Shown here piece after piece: positions 5,108 through 20,265 of a DNA stretch of 64,000 nucleotides. Below the pieces are notes generated by a model. The model was given only the letters and a program-made list of their open reading frames with translations. It was not told where the DNA came from and did not search any database. The DNA is from Salegentibacter sp. (lineage in GTDB: Bacteria; Bacteroidota; Bacteroidia; Flavobacteriales; Flavobacteriaceae). The translations under genes and the position numbers were made by a program. Positions within the stretch are counted from its first letter, which is position 1. Every line of letters begins with the position of its first letter. The stretch is from the NCBI GenBank assembly GCA_017795085.1, contig CP051246.1, positions 806,514 to 870,513 of the forward strand. Direction: 5' to 3'.

Positions 5108-5167
5108 TTACACCTTTATTACACCTCGATGTTAAAATTTGTATTCCAGGTGTAATAAATTACACCT
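5108..5167. promoter_or_regulatory. Putative integrase arm-type binding sites
   Basis: TTACACCT at 5108, 5119 and 5160 and inverted at 5148. The same octamer occurs at 40334 next to attR. Confidence 0.6.
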
Positions 5168-5208
5168 TGTTTTATTTTTTTAGCTATCTTTATGAAAAAC
5201 AAGTAGAT

Positions 5209-6351
5209 ATGAAAATAAAGCTAAAAAAGAAGAAACTTGCTTCCGGAAAATATAGTCTTTATATCGAATATTATAAAGGAACCATACAAGATGAGGATGG
5301 AAAACAAACTCATAATAGGGAATTCGAATACCTTAGAGAATACCTATTTGTTAATCCTAAAGATAGTTTCGAGAAGAATAAAAATGAAGAAACCTTATTA
5401 AGGGCAGAACAGATACTATCGATTCGAAAAGCGGAATATGCCCAGGGAAAATATGGTATAAAAGATAAAAGTAAGGAGAAATTTCTCTTTCTAACTTATT
5501 ACGACAAAATTAAAGAAGAGCGTTATGAGAGCAAGGGGAATTACGACAATTGGGATGCCGCTCAAAATCATATCGAGGATTATATTGGGAAAAGGAAAAT
5601 AACTTTTGAGGATGTTGATGAGGATTTCGTTTTAGGATTTAAAAAATACCTGAATAATAAAGCTAAAACAAAGTCTAATACTCTTCTATCCCAAAACTCC
5701 AAATACACTTATTACAATAAATTTAGGGCTGCTTTACGCCAGGCTTTTGACGATGGATATACCCGGCGAAATTTTGCTACAACGGTCAAAGGATTTGCTC
5801 AGGGGGAAACAACACGGGAATACCTTACGCAGGAGGAATTACAAGCTATGGCAACAGCCTACTGCAAGCACCGGGTACTTAAAAATGCATTTATGTTTAG
5901 TTGTTTAACCGGGCTTAGATGGAGTGATATAAACAAACTGACCTGGCTTGAAGTTAGGGATGAAGAGGAAGGATCCCGCTTAATTTTTAAGCAAAAGAAA
6001 ACCTCGGGACAGGAATATCAATATATTTCCAACCAGGCAAGACAGCTTTTAGGAAAAAGAAAAAGAGACAATGCCCGGGTATTCCAAGGTTTAAAATACG
6101 GAGCCCATTTTAATTCAGAAATACTGAGATGGTGTATGCGGGCCGGTATAACTAAACACATAACTTTTCATAGTGCCAGACATACTCACGCCGTCCTACT
6201 ATTGGAATATGGTGCTGATATCTATACTGTCTCAAAAGTTTTGGGACATAAAGAAATAAGAACCACCCAGGTTTATGCAAAGATTGTAGATAAGAAAAAG
6301 AAGGAAGCAGCCAACCTAATTCCTGAACTTGAAATGGATTATGAGTTTTGA
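5209..6351 (+). CDS. Tyrosine recombinase/integrase (Bacteroidota arm-binding + SAM-like + catalytic domains). Probable start ATG 5209
   Basis: TGLRWSD, HSARHT, LGHK and TTQVYAK catalytic motifs. N-terminal KKKKLASGKYSLYIEYY arm domain. Confidence 0.95.
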   Translation: MKIKLKKKKLASGKYSLYIEYYKGTIQDEDGKQTHNREFEYLREYLFVNPKDSFEKNKNEETLLRAEQILSIRKAEYAQGKYGIKDKSKEKFLFLTYYDKIKEERYESKGNYDNWDAAQNHIEDYIGKRKITFEDVDEDFVLGFKKYLNNKAKTKSNTLLSQNSKYTYYNKFRAALRQAFDDGYTRRNFATTVKGFAQGETTREYLTQEELQAMATAYCKHRVLKNAFMFSCLTGLRWSDINKLTWLEVRDEEEGSRLIFKQKKTSGQEYQYISNQARQLLGKRKRDNARVFQGLKYGAHFNSEILRWCMRAGITKHITFHSARHTHAVLLLEYGADIYTVSKVLGHKEIRTTQVYAKIVDKKKKEAANLIPELEMDYEF

Positions 6352-13624: not shown

Positions 13625-14123
13625 AAAATATAAATCCTATTCCAGGAAGAGTAAAGTACCGAGTATGGAGGACCTTATTTTTACCCCTGCTGAAGGGAAA
13701 AAGTCTAAGCAGGATAGCAAGGAACTACAACTTACTTTACAAACTGTAGAAGGAAGTGCAAGATGTGTGCCTGTGGGCACAATCTTGATTGCTCCCGATG
13801 GTCGCAATGAAAAAAAGGAGATGTTTAAGGGGAAAAGTGATTGTATAAAATTCAGGTGTTCGTTATATGAGAAAAAGCTGTTTAAGCTAAAAGCCAGGCA
13901 AAGCGGACTTACTTTAAGTGAATTTTGTAGAACGGCCATCTATGAAAAGGAAATAAAAGAACGCCTCTCGGAGGAGCATATTGAAATCTATAAAACCTTG
14001 GTGAAGTTTCATAATAATTTCAAGTCGATAGGGAATATGTTCCGAAAGAAAGACCCGCGGCTTTCCAAAACAGTTTACGACCTGGCCGATGAAATAAAAG
14101 CACATCTTAAAAATTTTCAATGA
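13596..14123 (+). CDS. mobC: Mobilization accessory protein MobC-like (ribbon-helix-helix). True start may be ATG 13821
   Basis: IKFRCSLYEKKLFKLKARQSGLTLSEFCR RHH pattern and NFKSIGNMF. Overlaps the relaxase start. Confidence 0.75.
   Translation: MKNSKMKKPKKYKSYSRKSKVPSMEDLIFTPAEGKKSKQDSKELQLTLQTVEGSARCVPVGTILIAPDGRNEKKEMFKGKSDCIKFRCSLYEKKLFKLKARQSGLTLSEFCRTAIYEKEIKERLSEEHIEIYKTLVKFHNNFKSIGNMFRKKDPRLSKTVYDLADEIKAHLKNFQ
13759..13787. promoter_or_regulatory. Candidate oriT hairpin
   Basis: CAAGAT-G-TGTGCC-TGTG-GGCACA-ATCTTG inverted repeat just upstream of the likely mobC start. Confidence 0.45.
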
Positions 14124-14986
14124 TGATCGGAAAAGGAAAAGCCATATCACATACCCGCGCTTCTATGTCCTACGGGTGGAACCAGGAGAAAAGTGCCGAA
14201 GTGGTGTATTCCCAAAATATTACCGGGGAGAACCCCAAAGAAGTGAGCGCTGAATTCCGTCTGACCCAGCAGCTTAACGAGAATTGCCAGAAAAACACCC
14301 TCTCCTTTATCATTAGTCCAACAATAGATGATGGTAAAAACCTTGGAAAGGAAGAACTCTCTAAAATATGTGACCGGTTTATGAAGGAGATGAAACTCCG
14401 GGATCGCCAGGCCATTGCCTTTGTTCATAAGGATAAAAAGCACAAACATATCCACTTATATGTTAACCGCGTAAATTTTAAAGGCCAGGCCTATAATGAC
14501 AGCTTTATAGGGAAACGAAGTCAGCAGGCGGCAGAAAAGGTAGCGGAAAGAATGCGGCTAACTACCGTAAGACAAGTGCAATGGGAAAAAGAACATAACC
14601 TGAAGGCTATTCGTGCAGAGATTAAACGACGTCACGAACTAACTTTTAGGCAATTTAAACCGCGGACTTTTAAAGATTATATAAAGGGAATGGAAACCAA
14701 TGGAGTGAAGGTGATTCCTTCCATCAATAAAAGCAATAAGCTGCAGGGTTTTCGCTTTGAGTTTGATAAATACAACCTGAAGGGGAGTGCGGTACACCGC
14801 ACAATGAGCGGGGGCAATATCGGGAAACGTTTAGCGGGTGAAAAGGGAATGTCGCATTTTCTAAAAAACAATACCCAGCTCAAACTGGCCACCAAAACGG
14901 TAGAACTTTCTACGGGAATGATTAAAACCATAGCCAAAAATATTATAAAAAAGACCATTTCAAAAGGACTGGATATGGGCATTTAA
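14120..14986 (+). CDS. Relaxase (MOB-P/VirD2-like)
   Basis: SFIISP and HKDKKHKHIHLYVNRV (HUH motif). Confidence 0.92.
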   Translation: MMIGKGKAISHTRASMSYGWNQEKSAEVVYSQNITGENPKEVSAEFRLTQQLNENCQKNTLSFIISPTIDDGKNLGKEELSKICDRFMKEMKLRDRQAIAFVHKDKKHKHIHLYVNRVNFKGQAYNDSFIGKRSQQAAEKVAERMRLTTVRQVQWEKEHNLKAIRAEIKRRHELTFRQFKPRTFKDYIKGMETNGVKVIPSINKSNKLQGFRFEFDKYNLKGSAVHRTMSGGNIGKRLAGEKGMSHFLKNNTQLKLATKTVELSTGMIKTIAKNIIKKTISKGLDMGI

Positions 14987-15365: not shown

Positions 15366-15833
15366 ATGACGCGTGTTATGGTTGAGACAATTAATTATAA
15401 AAAAGAAAGAGAGACGGTTGCAAAGTGGCTGGAACTCAAAACCCTTTCACTAAAAAAAGGAAACTCCTCTTTTGCCTACCTTAAAGTTTTACAAGAAGGT
15501 TTACATAGGAACTCTGTAAATTCTTTTATAAAGCATTCCACATTATCCAGAAAACAGGTGGCTAAATTAATTCATGTTTCTGAGAGAACCCTACAGCGAT
15601 ATTCGCCTGATAAGACTATGGATATTAATTCATCGGAACGGCTCATAGAATTAACACGCCTTTTTCATAAGGGAATTAATGTTTTTAATGACAAAGAAAA
15701 GTTTATTACCTGGTTAAACCGCCCAAATAAATCTTTGGCAAATTCAAAACCAATTGATTTAATGGAAACGAGTCTTGGTATTGATTTAGTTTTAGATGAG
15801 TTGCTTCGAATTGAACATGGTGTTTTTTCATGA
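15366..15833 (+). CDS. Xre/MbcA/ParS-type antitoxin
   Basis: LSRKQVAKLIHVSERTLQRY HTH and WLNRPNKSLANSKPIDLM. Overlaps the RES gene. Confidence 0.9.
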   Translation: MTRVMVETINYKKERETVAKWLELKTLSLKKGNSSFAYLKVLQEGLHRNSVNSFIKHSTLSRKQVAKLIHVSERTLQRYSPDKTMDINSSERLIELTRLFHKGINVFNDKEKFITWLNRPNKSLANSKPIDLMETSLGIDLVLDELLRIEHGVFS

Positions 15834-16285
15834 TTGCCTATAGAATTACAAAGAAAAAATGGATTAAAGATTTAAGCGGAACCGGAGCGAAATTAACGGG
15901 GGGACGCTGGAACCCGAAAGGCTTTCCTGTTTTATATTGTGCATCAACCTCTTCTTTAGCTATTTTGGAAAAATTAGTTCACGTTGATTTTGATCTCTTG
16001 CCAGATGACCTATTTATTGCAGAATTGGAAATTCCTGAAAATAGCATTGAAGAATTAACATTAAAAAATTTACCTAAGCATTGGAATAAATATCCAGGTC
16101 CGGATAGCCTCAGGTCACTTGGAAAAAAATGGCTTATGGAAAATAAATACCTAATTCTTAAGGTGCCAAGTGCCGTAAACCCAAATGAAACAAATTATCT
16201 AATTAATGTAGATCACTCGGATGCCGATAAAATCAAAATCATAAAAACCTATCCTTTTGAAATTGATAATCGGTTGATAAAATAG
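15830..16285 (+). CDS. RES-domain toxin (NAD+ phosphorylase family)
   Basis: AYRI, GGRWN, YCASTSSLAILE, LKVPSAV and NYLINV. Confidence 0.92.
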   Translation: MIAYRITKKKWIKDLSGTGAKLTGGRWNPKGFPVLYCASTSSLAILEKLVHVDFDLLPDDLFIAELEIPENSIEELTLKNLPKHWNKYPGPDSLRSLGKKWLMENKYLILKVPSAVNPNETNYLINVDHSDADKIKIIKTYPFEIDNRLIK

Positions 16286-16359
16286 AGCGAGTTTTATCAA
16301 ATATTGATCTTCAAAAAAATATGTAGCCCACGCAGTTGTAAATATTTCAAACATTATGT

Positions 16360-16388
16360 AATCACTTTTAAATTATTTAAAAGTGATT
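16360..16388. terminator. Perfect 12-bp-arm hairpin between the RES gene and the RNA array
   Basis: AATCACTTTTAA-ATTAT-TTAAAAGTGATT. Confidence 0.55.
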
Positions 16389-16396
16389 TCTACGTT

Positions 16397-16465
16397 ACTG
16401 TATGTGCTGTTCGCATTTAGTGAGTGTTGATCATAACCTCACCTTACGGGTGTACAGGCACCCTC
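16397..16465 (-). ncRNA. Putative dCas12f guide-RNA scaffold, distal copy (diverged)
   Basis: 56/69 identical to the middle copy. Most changes fall in predicted loops. Confidence 0.7.
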
Positions 16466-16539
16466 GAATTTACAACCTCTTACCATTTCTCTTCACTATT
16501 TATATCTTGGAGTGATCACATTAAGTGAGAGCCCACGCC

Positions 16540-16608
16540 GTTGTATATGCTAATCGCATTTAGTGAGTGTAATTTCCAACCTCACCTTGCGGGTGTACAA
16601 GCACCCTC
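16540..16608 (-). ncRNA. Putative dCas12f guide-RNA scaffold, middle copy
   Basis: 67/69 identical to the proximal copy. Followed by GGCGTGGGCTCTCACT. Confidence 0.8.
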
Positions 16609-16714
16609 TTAATTATTCATTTATAAATTATAGCACCTGAAATTTCTTATTTGGTATAGTAAGTAATTACCTTTAGGATTCTGGACAATCTGTTAAAAAA
16701 TAAGTGAGCCCACG

Positions 16715-16783
16715 GTTGTATATGCTAATCGCATTTAGTGAGTGTAATTTCCAACCTCACCTTACGGGTTTACAAGCACCCTC
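16715..16783 (-). ncRNA. Putative dCas12f guide-RNA scaffold, proximal copy
   Basis: GAGGGTGCTTGTAAACCCGTAAGGTGAGGTTGGAAATTACACTCACTAAATGCGATTAGCATATACAAC starts 10 nt after the dCas12f stop. It has three predicted hairpins and is followed by CGTGGGCTCACTTATT. Confidence 0.8.
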
Positions 16784-16792
16784 GTAAAATCA

Positions 16793-17893
16793 TCAATCTG
16801 TTATCAATTCAATGCCGGCTTTTTCGGCTTTGTATTTTATTTTGGCCATCAGTTTATAATAGCTCCAGTTCCGCAATACAAATTCCTCCTCTTTGGCAAT
16901 TTCCATTTTATTCTCCTGATTCATTAGAATTAGTGTGCCTGCCTGGTGCTTTACGCAAAAGTCAATTAATTTCCGACTGTAGAGGTGCAGCCGATTAGTC
17001 ACATAATTCTTTTCTAACTCGTGAAATCTTTGCACTGCTTTTGTTTTTCGCCTGCGCCCTTTACCTGATTTTGCATAGGTTACTCCTTCCTGTGCCCTTT
17101 TACGGGCGGCTTGTATCGCAAGCCTACGGTATAAGAATTCTTCCCGGCTGCCGATGTTCAGTTTGTTCTTACCGGCTTTAACTATAATGGGGTATTCCAG
17201 CGACAGAGAAGCCTCGGCGATCACATTAGATTTTAAGCTGTGCTTTTCTTTTTCAATTTCAAATGTGGCCAGCAAAAAAGTTTTGTCATTTTTCAATTGA
17301 ATGTGGGAAGTACATAGCTTTGTCTCCCCTGCTATTACCCGCTCCAGTAGCTTGCGCTTATCGGAATAATCCCTTCCTAAATATGTTTTTAGCGGAATGG
17401 AAAACAAACGAAAACAAAAGGCTTTTTTCTCTTCATCATAACATAATCCTTTAATGCCATCCATATCAAACGGAAAAGCCATATCCCTTTTAAAGTTCAT
17501 TAAGGAACGTTCGCCCTTCCAGTATTCTACCTTATTTTTCTGAAACGTACCCATTAAATTGTGGTTGATATTGCCTAAAATGTTGGTAGGGATTTCCCCT
17601 TTATAGCGGTCGGACACTACCCGGTAGGTGGCATTGATGCGGGAGCGGTTCAGGATGCCGGCTTCATCTTTCTTTTCATCGGCCAGTTTATATTTTATCC
17701 CTTCGGTTAAATAAAAGAATTCCTGGATCATTTCCTGAACGTAAAGATGGCTAATAATAAGATTAGCCGCCTTGAAGCTGCGGTTGCGCCACTGGTAGAG
17801 TTTATCCAGAGCCTCCTTCCGTTCTTCTTTGGTAGGCAGATCAACCAGTAACTGGATCTTTCGGGTGAGTTTTATAGTATCTTTTCCCATCAC
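16793..17893 (-). CDS. Nuclease-dead Cas12f/TnpB-like RNA-guided DNA-binding protein (dCas12f)
   Basis: TnpB/Cas12f layout: TRKIQL start, YLGRD wedge region, bridge helix, LHLYSRKLIDFC, NWSYYKLMAKIKYKAEKAGI. RuvC-I GIDLG is replaced by AEASLS, the RuvC-II Glu is absent (LILMNQ), and the protein stops before the zinc finger and RuvC-III. Confidence 0.85.
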   Translation of the reverse strand: MMGKDTIKLTRKIQLLVDLPTKEERKEALDKLYQWRNRSFKAANLIISHLYVQEMIQEFFYLTEGIKYKLADEKKDEAGILNRSRINATYRVVSDRYKGEIPTNILGNINHNLMGTFQKNKVEYWKGERSLMNFKRDMAFPFDMDGIKGLCYDEEKKAFCFRLFSIPLKTYLGRDYSDKRKLLERVIAGETKLCTSHIQLKNDKTFLLATFEIEKEKHSLKSNVIAEASLSLEYPIIVKAGKNKLNIGSREEFLYRRLAIQAARKRAQEGVTYAKSGKGRRRKTKAVQRFHELEKNYVTNRLHLYSRKLIDFCVKHQAGTLILMNQENKMEIAKEEEFVLRNWSYYKLMAKIKYKAEKAGIELITD

Positions 17894-18675
17894 TAAGCCG
17901 ATTGTTGTTGTTCGTGTTTTAGCTGCAAAAGTTTATATGCTGCCATAAATTCTTTGTGGACCTTCTTTTGGGAAAGGTTGAGCTCATTTGCAATGGCAGC
18001 AAAAGAATACTGCTTTTCTGTACGTAGCTGTAAGACCTTTTTCTGGTCCTCGGTCATTTTGCCCTGTAGCTTTACCGCCAGCATCGGTTTTGGTTTGGTT
18101 TCCAAATTGCTCCCCTGGTGAATGATGTTTTTAATATCCTCGATCGCCCGTTTTACCTCGTTGCTGGTGTAGGTAATACTGGTTCCCATAAGCTGAGCAA
18201 TGGCTTTATACTGAAAACCGTATTTTAAACAGAGTTCAATTAGGTGTCGTCTTTCAGGGCTAAGTAAAGGGAAAACACGGCTTACCCGGTCGAAGGCTTT
18301 CTGCTGGGTCTCGCTATCCAACAGATGTTCATCCTCCTTCTCGGGGTCATAGCCGTGCATGTATTTTTCATAGTCCTCATAATATTCCAGGCGGTTGATG
18401 TTTCGGTAAAAATTATTCTTAGGTCGGGCATAGTAATAGGTACAATCCCTTTTCATTACATAGCGAAGAAAAAAGAAAATATGTTCCGGGCGTTCTATCC
18501 CATCTCTATTTTCCCATAGTTTCAGGAAAGTATCCTGAAGGATGGTCTCAATGACGAATTCATCCCGAATTAATTGCTTTCCTAACCAAAAGAGCCTTCG
18601 GTGGTACCTGGCATAAATTAATTCCAGGGCATCGGGATGGCCTTCTTGTAATAATTTAAAAATACGCTGTAACAT
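17893..18675 (-). CDS. ECF-type sigma factor (sigmaE-like) with an extra C-terminal HTH, translationally coupled to dCas12f
   Basis: Sigma region 2 (IYARYHRRLF...ILQDTFLKLW), region 4 (LSPERRHLIEL...YKAIAQLMG) and a second region-4-like HTH (MTEDQKKVLQL...FAAIANELNLS). Its stop abuts the dCas12f start. Confidence 0.88.
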   Translation of the reverse strand: MLQRIFKLLQEGHPDALELIYARYHRRLFWLGKQLIRDEFVIETILQDTFLKLWENRDGIERPEHIFFFLRYVMKRDCTYYYARPKNNFYRNINRLEYYEDYEKYMHGYDPEKEDEHLLDSETQQKAFDRVSRVFPLLSPERRHLIELCLKYGFQYKAIAQLMGTSITYTSNEVKRAIEDIKNIIHQGSNLETKPKPMLAVKLQGKMTEDQKKVLQLRTEKQYSFAAIANELNLSQKKVHKEFMAAYKLLQLKHEQQQSA

Positions 18676-18780
18676 AATAAGTTAAATTTAAACTTTCATA
18701 CTATGTAGGTTTTTCAGATCATTAGGAAGAACTTTTACAATATGATTAATAAAAATGCTTACAAGTCTTCTAATAACACT

Positions 18781-18865
18781 CAAATATAATGAAATTTTAT
18801 AACTAATGGTACAGGTACCTTTGTTAAAGATTTAATTATGTTCCTAATTGTAGCCTCGGAACATA
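18781..18865. promoter_or_regulatory. Divergent promoters and candidate operator
   Basis: TATATTTG on the minus strand (18781-18788), TACCTTTG on the plus strand (18815-18822) and the inverted repeat TATGTTCC-N13-GGAACATA (18837-18865). Confidence 0.55.
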
Positions 18866-18869
18866 GCTC

Positions 18870-19097
18870 GTGGCAAGTAAAATTGAAATCTATATTATTA
18901 AAAAGGTAAGAGATAAGAGAAGGGAGAAAGGCTTATCTCAAATAGCTCTTTCCCAAAAATTAAATTTAAGTGATAGTTTTGTTTCCCATGTGGAATCAAA
19001 AAATAGAAGAGCAAAATACAACCTTAACCACTTAAACGAAATTGCTTTAATTCTGGAATGTTCTCCCAAAGATTTTTGGCCTGAAAAGCCACTTTAA
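18870..19097 (+). CDS. Xre-family HTH regulator, divergent from the sigma-dCas12f operon
   Basis: VRDKRREKGLSQIALSQKLNLSDSFVSHVE...YNLNHLNEIA. GTG start. Confidence 0.88.
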   Translation: MASKIEIYIIKKVRDKRREKGLSQIALSQKLNLSDSFVSHVESKNRRAKYNLNHLNEIALILECSPKDFWPEKPL

Positions 19098-19128
19098 ATA
19101 ACGTAATGGTTGAGTTGATTTCTTTTCA

Positions 19129-19182
19129 TTACGGTTTTCCGCATTTCTCTCTTATTTTATTGTTTTATATTTAGCGAAACTG
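19129..19182 (+). repeat. 54-bp promoter/operator repeat, copy 1 (copy 2 at 22343-22396)
   Basis: TTACGGTTTTCCGCATTT(C/T)TCTCTTATTTTATTGTTTTATATTTAGCGAAACTG, 53/54 identical. Confidence 0.85.
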
Positions 19183-19251
19183 CGTTATCCCAACATATTA
19201 GTTCTTGAATGGCTTTATTTATCGGGATACAAGGAGTTAGGCATAATCATT

Positions 19252-20265
19252 ATGAAAAAAGAAAAAGATTTTAAAATAGAAGATTTTTACAAGTTAATTG
19301 CCCTGGTAATTTTATTATGGATAATTAGTTGGATAACGACAGATATAATCTATTCTTCAACTACGGATAGAGGAGCATTTGGAGATAAATTTGGGTTTAT
19401 CAATTCTCTATTTTCTGGATTAGCATTAGCTGGAATTATTTATTCTATTTTTCTTCAACAAAGAGAGCTCTCACTCCAAAGAAAGGAATTGACGGAAACA
19501 AAAGAAGAGTTCAAAGATCAAAATTTTCAGACTACATTTTTCAATTTAGTAAAAACTCAAAATCAGATTGCTAATGATCTATCAGCTAAGGTTTCATTTA
19601 TAAGAAATTACGATGATCATACATATAGAAATTTAGAGGGGAGAAAATTTTTTAACCAATCCAAATTTGAGCTACAAAGAATTGAAAAAGCATTATCAAA
19701 TTCAGCATTTCTAGAATTTCGCCGATGGGATCCTCAAGATGAATCAGATGAACCTCAGAGTTTTGAGGAAGCTATAAGACTTACCGACACTATGAAGATA
19801 TCCTATACTTTCAACTATTATAAAATAGACAAAGAAACTTGGGAAAAATTTTCGCAATTAGATCCAATTAAAAAAGCTGAAAAATTGTATGCTTTGTTTT
19901 TCAATAAATTTCATTTCGCGATTGGTCATTACTTCAGACATATATACCATATTTTGCTTTTCCTTGAAAAAACTGAGGAAGAAAAAATATTAAAGTTCAA
20001 TTCAATTACAGATTTAGAAACTAAAAATAAGAGAATTGCCTCTACAAAAGCTGAATTTAAACAGTATGCTGACTTTTTACAAGCTCAGATGTCAACACCA
20101 GAGCTTTTTCTACTTTTTTACAATTCATTATCATTTCCAAAACTAAAGAAATTACTAATTAAATATAATATTCTTGAAAATTTACCTGAGGAAGATTTAC
20201 TTAATAAGGAGCACAATGCTATAGAAGGTATTAATTTGAAGAGTATAAAGGAAAACCTTAAATAA
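19252..20265 (+). CDS. Putative phage abortive infection protein (putAbiC-like) with N-terminal TM helices
   Basis: GAFGDKFG..NSLFSGLA, FQTTFFNL, GHYFRHIYHIL and LQAQMSTPELFLLFYN. Confidence 0.75.
   Translation: MKKEKDFKIEDFYKLIALVILLWIISWITTDIIYSSTTDRGAFGDKFGFINSLFSGLALAGIIYSIFLQQRELSLQRKELTETKEEFKDQNFQTTFFNLVKTQNQIANDLSAKVSFIRNYDDHTYRNLEGRKFFNQSKFELQRIEKALSNSAFLEFRRWDPQDESDEPQSFEEAIRLTDTMKISYTFNYYKIDKETWEKFSQLDPIKKAEKLYALFFNKFHFAIGHYFRHIYHILLFLEKTEEEKILKFNSITDLETKNKRIASTKAEFKQYADFLQAQMSTPELFLLFYNSLSFPKLKKLLIKYNILENLPEEDLLNKEHNAIEGINLKSIKENLK

Follow-up and report, generated by a model that had tools for sequence, protein, structure and literature searches.

Predicted tandem single-guide RNA units at an rpoE-dcas12f RNA-guided transcription locus of Salegentibacter

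Introduction

Directly downstream of a gene for a nuclease-dead Cas12f (dcas12f), a 64 000-nt stretch of a Salegentibacter genome (the window throughout) carries three tandem repeats that, judged by their sequence, appear to be complete single-guide RNA genes of a dCas12f-sigma system, each ∼89 nt long. The locus as a whole would be an rpoE-dcas12f RNA-guided transcription locus of a Salegentibacter-like flavobacterium. We are highly confident that the repeats are best explained as the guide RNA (gRNA) region of such a locus, and we include in this explanation the units, their mechanism, the wiring to targets and the growth of the array as laid out below.

RNA-guided transcription of this kind was described by Hoffmann et al. 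(bioRxiv 2025, PMC12259090; Nature 2026, PMC13472631), with a structure deposited as PDB 9n9c (PMC12259091). In the Flagellimonas taeanensis (Fta) system the gRNA gene comes immediately after dcas12f and gives a single-guide transcript with paired regions P1-P4 and a 14-nt guide at its 3′ end (PMC12259091); this gRNA was mapped by RIP-seq and visualised by cryo-EM (PMC13472631; PMC12259091). The Fta TAM is a single 5′-G. Guides of more than 10 nt are active, those of 14 nt most so; 10 contiguous matches are the lower limit at which activity was seen, and transcription newly starts 46 bp past the TAM (PMC13472631). Characteristic of the system are 3′ guides of 14-16 nt and target sites, with a 5′-G TAM, that are found ahead of susCD, two-component or rpoE-dcas12f genes and overlap the hth-associated ncRNA. 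The same study describes the association of rpoE-dcas12f loci with an hth gene, and reports that ‘multiple tandemly encoded gRNAs’ co-purify with the Lpa and Pum dCas12f homologues, the first two of the three Pum gRNAs having identical guides. No tracrRNA-like species was found there, and the gRNAs were proposed to descend from repeat-spacer units, both forms being present at a Sphingobacterium locus (PMC13472631). Biogenesis and processing of the gRNAs are not addressed in that paper.

Methods

Covariance model. Scaffolds were sought with a covariance model, R1, made from an alignment of the seven units of the Salegentibacter genome with three hairpins. The search set was the window and 47 related Flavobacteriaceae dcas12f loci (denoted by L numbers), of which the closest are from Salegentibacter spp., with 93-94% protein identity. 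Since R1 was built from the genome's own units, the window matches it by construction, and only matches in the other loci are independent.

Target search. The genome is a single 4.73-Mb contig (C1), in which target sites were sought by blastn-short and by scanning scripts. By chance alone, the genome should contain an exact 14-mer 0.035 times. The 5′-G TAM and the +46 start were taken over from the Fta homologue, which is 73-75% identical.

Results

Genes of the locus

The initial annotation, made from the window alone, had named the 366-aa protein dCas12f, and a phmmer search bears this out: the protein matches the solved ‘Nuclease-deactivated Cas12f’ (PDB 9n9c_A, 365 aa) over its full length (residues 2-364 to 1-363, E 1.1e-184), and the AEASLS motif is identical in the two. 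Active Cas12f and TnpB chains in PDB gave weaker, partial matches; the active Cas12f chains have 415-539 aa and align only partially to the 366-aa protein. These alignments indicate a Cas12f fold with an inactivated, C-terminally truncated RuvC domain. Pfam models gave no match to the protein, and the identification is that of the PDB sequence search.

The rpoE gene lies upstream on the same strand and ends at the coordinate where dcas12f starts (17893), the two genes abutting; rpoE homologues are found directly upstream of dcas12f in the 47 related loci. With the divergent hth gene the layout is hth / rpoE / dcas12f / gRNA (Table 1). The locus combines a nuclease-dead Cas12f, an upstream rpoE, a downstream single-guide RNA, an hth gene and, for units 1 and 2 only, a matching target. 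The hth gene of this locus is of a different, 75-aa type, which is also found in L011.

Table 1. Features of the locus, its gRNA region and related elements of the genome. Coordinates are those of the window unless preceded by C1; the units of this genome match R1 by construction.
Feature	Coordinates	Strand	Basis and details
hth, 75-aa HTH_3 protein	18870-19097	+ (divergent from rpoE)	Pfam HTH_3 (2.9e-06)
rpoE, 260-aa ECF-type sigma factor	17893-18675	-	Pfam Sigma70_r4_2 (8.5e-11), Sigma70_r4, Sigma70_ECF, Sigma70_r2
dcas12f, 366-aa nuclease-dead Cas12f	16793-17893	-	phmmer versus PDB 9n9c_A; stop TGA 16793-16795
Predicted gRNA unit 1	16695-16789	-	Scaffold 16715-16789; 14-nt guide CGTGGGCTCACTTA at 16701-16714; T6 run 16695-16700; R1 92.6 bits
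Predicted gRNA unit 2	16526-16614	-	Scaffold 16540-16614; guide GGCGTGGGCTCTCA at 16526-16539; no T-run after guide; R1 99.9 bits
Predicted gRNA unit 3	16383-16471	-	Scaffold 16397-16471; putative guide AACGTAGAAATCAC at 16383-16396; R1 89.7 bits
Perfect 14-bp palindrome	16360-16388		AATCACTTTTAAAT / ATTTAAAAGTGATT; inverted-repeat search; overlaps end of guide 3
Orphan piece	16313-16343	-	Scaffold 3′ end ATTTACAAC (16335-16343); guide-like TGCGTGGGCTACAT (16321-16334); A + T7 (16313-16320)
Locus B, second complete rpoE-dcas12f	C1:3093192-3095071	+	Three gRNA units at C1:3095074-3095497
Locus C, dcas12f C-terminal remnant (last 78 codons)	∼C1:4140152-4140480	+	One intact-looking unit, guide GGCGTGGGCATCGC, T7
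Conserved element (∼170 nt), 606-kb copy	C1:606235-606411	-	Genome search
Conserved element, 3092-kb copy	C1:3092910-3093083	+	Genome search
Conserved element, 4135-kb copy (nc4135)	C1:4134958-4135130	-	Genome search
Conserved element, fourth copy	C1:4105878-4106036	-	Genome search
Conserved element, fifth copy	C1:2945513-2945675	+	Genome search

Three scaffold-plus-guide units

A repeat search returned three direct-repeat copies (16380-16469, 16523-16612 and 16698-16787) at spacings of 143 and 175, the same copies and spacings that had been noted at first. Their scaffold had been put at 69 nt, which is too short: homology with the 89-nt Fta gRNA gives 75 nt of scaffold and 14 nt of guide per unit. 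The 69-nt core does start 10 nt after the dCas12f stop, with nine bases between it and the TGA, and the full scaffold of unit 1 begins 3 nt past that stop. Behind the scaffold of unit 1 come exactly 14 nt and then T6, in agreement with the published guide length; units 2 and 3 have no T-run after the guide.

The segments 3′ of the repeats start with near-identical sequence, and guides 1 and 2 (CGTGGGCTCACTTA versus GGCGTGGGCTCTCA) are near-duplicates offset by 2 nt. Two positions of the 69-nt core distinguish unit 1 from unit 2, and 13 distinguish unit 3 from either of them. That these 13 differences fall mostly in loops, as originally claimed, holds up on counting: the 30 stem positions contain only 1 of them when unit 3 is compared with unit 2, and 2 when it is compared with unit 1, against ∼5.7 expected from an even spread (binomial p ∼0.007). 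The further description of a scaffold that ends in ATACAAC, with sequence diverging right after it, needs amendment. Units 1 and 2 do end in ...ACAAC, but unit 3 ends in ACAGT, and guides 1 and 2 are near-duplicates rather than divergent. The ACAGT ending would not be disabling by itself, because the same or similar endings (ACAGT, ACAGC or ACAGA) precede normal GGCGTG guides in second or third units of other loci (L037, L045, L021, L025 and L047).

Scaffold structure and distribution

R1 found 72 units in 47 sources, namely 46 related loci and the window, and in every locus no more than ∼10 nt separate the dcas12f stop from the first unit. At L006, the F. taeanensis locus, the model scores 86 bits, and the scaffold there is identical to units 1 and 2 at 59/75 and 60/75 positions. 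The best-scoring scaffold among all 72 is that of unit 2 in the window, with the advantage of a model built from this genome.

The three hairpins proposed earlier (GGGTG/CACCC, GGTGAG/CTCAC(T) and ATGC/GCAT) are all present in the units and are supported by covariation. On the 72-unit alignment, whose fitting to the model makes covariation counts lean towards that model, 97.8% of cells are paired and 7 of the 15 pairs show changes on both sides. None of 500 shuffles reached the observed values, and sliding the partners against each other lowers pairing to 27-63%. Covariation is clearest where AU/GC and CG/UA swaps occur, in the third hairpin, and RNAalifold independently recovers the same helices. 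An Rfam scan of 15500-19500 gave two chance-level matches only and no known family. Promoter and terminator consensus scans gave nothing above shuffles; the consensus is that of sigma-70, which is ill-suited to Bacteroidota.

Guide targets in the genome

The best target of guide 1 is C1:606314-606327 (-), a 13/14 match with a 5′-G, 532 bp upstream of a SusC/SusD pair (the susC leader); the mismatch is at position 10. A second site, C1:3092990-3093003 (+), matches at 12/14 with a 5′-G and lies in the leader 190 bp upstream of the rpoE of a second rpoE-dcas12f locus (locus B). Guide 2 has 10 contiguous TAM-proximal matches and a 5′-G at C1:3092988, upstream of that same locus. The locus B leader site reads CCCGGGCGTGGGC and offers a G TAM in all three registers; the susC leader has one in the register of guide 1 only. 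Guide 3 (AACGTAGAAATCAC) has no genome site within 1 mismatch except the unit itself, and its seed matches with a G occur at the level of chance. For guide 3, the orphan guide, the three guides of locus B and the guide of locus C, the genome search gave nothing above chance besides seed-level matches to the conserved elements described below.

By analogy with the F. taeanensis system, dCas12f would bind each of the RNAs and form an R-loop at guide-matching DNA beside a 5′-G. It would then recruit its partner sigma factor and RNA polymerase, with transcription predicted to start ∼46 bp downstream and to need no promoter motif. From the sequence matches, unit 1 would switch on the chromosomal susC/susD transporter operon, and units 1 and 2 the second, chromosomal rpoE-dcas12f locus. 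Multiplexing by duplication, as first proposed, is plausible for units 1 and 2. In unit 3 the end of the scaffold is altered, and its guide has no target in this genome.

Conserved elements at the target sites

Both guide 1 sites fall inside copies of a five-member conserved element (Table 1). The 606-kb and 4135-kb copies are each flanked by a SusC/SusD pair and, upstream, by a divergent ORF, which has a Pfam HTH match at the 4135-kb copy and no Pfam match at the 606-kb copy. The 3092-kb copy is the one 190 bp upstream of the locus B rpoE. Among the related loci, ∼27 of 47 have the conserved element upstream of rpoE; it was not found upstream of the window's own rpoE (18676-18869). These elements correspond to the published categories I and IV and to the ‘hth-associated ncRNA’.

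Four of the five elements were folded from the TAM to the U-run, and each formed a single long hairpin, with z-scores from -4.0 to -5.5 and a stability that none of 200 shuffles reached. The 5′ arm of the hairpin is the guide-matching sequence, and the 3′ arm is closed by CCACGC(C), followed by U5-6. At the susC leader, TAM+46 is the start of the hairpin 3′ arm. We infer that a transcript starting at TAM+46 could not form the terminator-like hairpin and would read on, because its start falls after the 5′ arm. If this is true, the ncRNA would be a terminated leader that is bypassed by RNA-guided choice of the start site, with read-through into susC or rpoE. The ncRNA is treated as a negative regulator in PMC13472631, as a hypothesis only, and a terminator-like hairpin in it is not described in that paper. 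The arm of the 4135-kb susCD element (nc4135), GGCGTGTCATCCGA, has no matching guide in the genome; the first units of the relatives L002 and L041 match it at 13/14 and 12/14.

Other loci and the growth of arrays

The genome holds seven scaffold copies, all behind dcas12f genes or a dcas12f remnant. Those of locus B carry the guides CCTTCCCTTTAAGA, CCCTCCCCTAAAGA and TTAATTCAATTAGC, which have no relation to GCGTGGGC. The DNA between the locus B units is a copy of the last ∼25 codons (∼80 nt) of dcas12f (tblastn 3095167-3095241, 76%, E 2e-5), so that the duplicated segment comprised the end of dcas12f and the gRNA. In the window the trace of the same process is 9-10 nt only (AACAGATTG, repeat D3), which is a hint. 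The remnant at locus C is 5 kb away from the hth-ncRNA-susCD target at 4135 kb.

Among the 47 sources with matches, 26 have one unit, 17 have two (a count that includes L030 and L039, with the second copy ∼1.2 kb upstream, and L029, with a weak partial match) and 4 have three (L002, L021, L032 and the window). True tandem arrays are found in ∼18 of the 47; for the 46 related loci this means 14 with two tandem units and 3 with three. Many arrays hold clearly different guides: L002, L021 and L032 have three each, those of L002 being GGCGTGTCATCCCA, GGCGTGAGTTGCTC and GGCGTGGGCTCTTA. The initial annotation had asked whether unit number and guides vary between strains, and they do vary between relatives. 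The loci whose dCas12f is 93-94% identical to that of the window have 2, 2 and 3 units and differing first guides, so that unit number and content appear to turn over quickly. We propose that an array gains units when its gRNA gene is duplicated in tandem.

A probable remnant of a terminal unit

The initial count of three units is right for full units and overlooks a fourth, short piece on the same strand (the orphan piece of Table 1). It shares 17 of 19 positions with the point in unit 2 where scaffold and guide meet (repeat D4). In L001, L002 and L041 the array closes with ...ACAAC, GGCGTGGGCTC, (C/T)TA and then a T-run, and the orphan piece aligns exactly there. The identification rests on this junction repeat and on synteny with the terminal guide of the relatives; as a partial unit the piece is not significant by covariance model (16335-16396, 4.8 bits, E 0.55). 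It would be the remnant of an ancestral terminal unit.

The 14-bp palindrome that overlaps the end of guide 3 has no second copy in the genome. The sequence is compatible with either of two histories: ∼62 nt including the palindrome may have been inserted between the scaffold of unit 3 and its old guide, or a deletion may have removed most of a fourth unit. The 62-nt segment between the unit 3 scaffold and the orphan piece was also considered as a MITE and rejected, there being no other copy in the genome. Unit 3 itself would have either an orphan guide or the status of a decaying copy.

Other readings of the repeats

One alternative is that unit 1 alone works as a gRNA gene, the other two units and the orphan piece being decaying, functionless by-products of tandem duplication. 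We think this unlikely. Unit 3 would fit, with its 13 substitutions, its ACAGT scaffold end and its lack of a target, and so would unit 2, which is without a terminator-like T-run and has a best target of only 10 contiguous nt; the orphan piece shows that decay does occur in this array. But it is unit 2 that has the best-scoring scaffold of all 72 units (99.9 bits), and the substitutions of unit 3 avoid stems, which speaks for a fold still under selection. Guides of the GGCGTG... kind are found repeatedly in second units, in several genera, the ACAG(T/C/A) ending precedes normal GGCGTG guides elsewhere (e.g. L037, L045), and several tandem units are bound by dCas12f in Lpa and Pum by RIP-seq (PMC13472631).

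We give very little credence to a degenerate CRISPR array, in which long repeats and spacers would yield crRNAs, with a separate tracrRNA as their pairing partner, as happens with active Cas12f. The scaffold end ATACAAC resembles Cas12f repeats, and descent of gRNAs from repeat-spacer units has been proposed, with the Sphingobacterium locus showing both (PMC13472631). However, instead of regular repeats of ∼25-40 nt with unique spacers, the window has 75-nt repeats with three internal hairpins at periods of 143 and 175, and the would-be spacers begin near-identically. No tracrRNA-like species is reported in PMC13472631, and cryo-EM shows a single-guide transcript (PMC12259091). There is no cas1 within 370 kb: the sole Cas1 match (PF01867) in the genome, C1:1195767-1196456 (-), is ∼372 kb from the locus, in keeping with the earlier remark that the window has none. 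That match points to a conventional CRISPR-Cas system elsewhere in the genome.

Least credible of all is a structural element of the 3′-UTR or intergenic DNA (stabiliser, terminator, REP-like) unrelated to guiding, since the repeats, although they sit in a 3′ untranslated region, form hairpins and belong to no Rfam family, number only seven in the genome, all behind dcas12f genes or the remnant, while the homologous Fta RNA is bound by dCas12f (PMC13472631; PMC12259091) and the consensus terminator scan gave nothing above shuffles.

The reading that we prefer, a gRNA region made of complete sgRNA-like units rather than a repeat-spacer array, was already that of the initial annotation, and it gains from the presence of the scaffold immediately behind dcas12f at 46 of the related loci.

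A mobilizable island around the locus

An integrative mobilizable island that adjoins mnmE (window 3499-25000) carries the rpoE-dcas12f locus as cargo. On one side are genes for a tyrosine integrase (5167-6351), a VapE-like helicase, a Toprim primase, a MobA/VirD2 relaxase (14120-14986) and an Xre-RES toxin-antitoxin pair (15366-16285); on the other, past hth, are AbiC-like and ApeA-HEPN genes. Of the 47 related loci, 8 from several genera have a homologous relaxase module ≤3 kb away, and in all 8 but L016 it is convergent and just downstream of the gRNA array. An integrase, or carriage on a mobile genetic or genomic island, is not mentioned in PMC13472631.

We regard it as possible rather than probable that the array is the guide set of an island-borne dCas12f-sigma module plugged into a resident circuit, in which the register-shifted guides would use different G TAMs and the ncRNA terminator would be bypassed. 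If this is true, one island would address both the chromosomal susCD leader and the chromosomal rpoE-dcas12f leader. Island carriage and the terminator-like hairpins at the targets both bear on what the hth-associated ncRNA does.

Discussion

The core idea of the initial annotation, multiplexing by whole sgRNA-like units without cas1/cas2, is already published (2025-2026). Our finding is an unstudied Salegentibacter-type example of the published system and leaves the known picture unchanged. What it adds is the frequency of arrays, ∼18 in 47 and often with different guides, a view of how arrays grow and decay, and a test case for the trimming of units. Natural multiplexing in this clade exceeds the near-identical copies shown in published work. 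As an array grows, the 3′ end of dcas12f would be duplicated along with the gRNA gene, and arrays would also decay. The three-unit array, in which one unit has a T-run and two have none, is a convenient case for studying the transcription and trimming of tandem units.

Comparison with known systems

Type V-F CRISPR-Cas12f (Cas14) shares with the locus the protein fold (PDB 9nzr, 8hr5, 7l48 and others) and a repeat-like ...ACAAC directly before the guide. Unlike it, the locus has no nuclease, no tracrRNA, no nearby cas1/cas2 and no short repeat-spacer periodicity, and its guides match the organism's own regulatory regions.

TldR (Wiegand et al. 2024, cited in PMC13472631; PMC13622181) is likewise a domesticated, nuclease-dead, RNA-guided DNA binder; one chimeric guide derived from omega-RNA is encoded beside its gene, and it acts on host genes. 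In contrast, it represses transcription, has no sigma partner and belongs to another branch of the TnpB/Cas12 tree.

The tandem gRNAs of Lpa and Pum come closer, being several complete scaffold-plus-guide units arranged head to tail downstream of dcas12f. The published guides are similar or identical, whereas the window has two near-duplicates shifted by 2 nt and one unrelated guide.

Closest is the Fta system. The order of genes is the same (hth, rpoE, dcas12f, gRNA), the guide has 14 nt, and the protein aligns end to end with 73% identity to L006 (tblastn). The predicted 5′-G targets also lie in susCD and rpoE-dcas12f leaders (categories I and IV) and overlap the hth-associated ncRNA. The Fta locus has one gRNA, whereas the window has three units and a remnant; unlike in Fta, the rpoE of the window is without the upstream ncRNA element, and its locus is on a mobilizable island.
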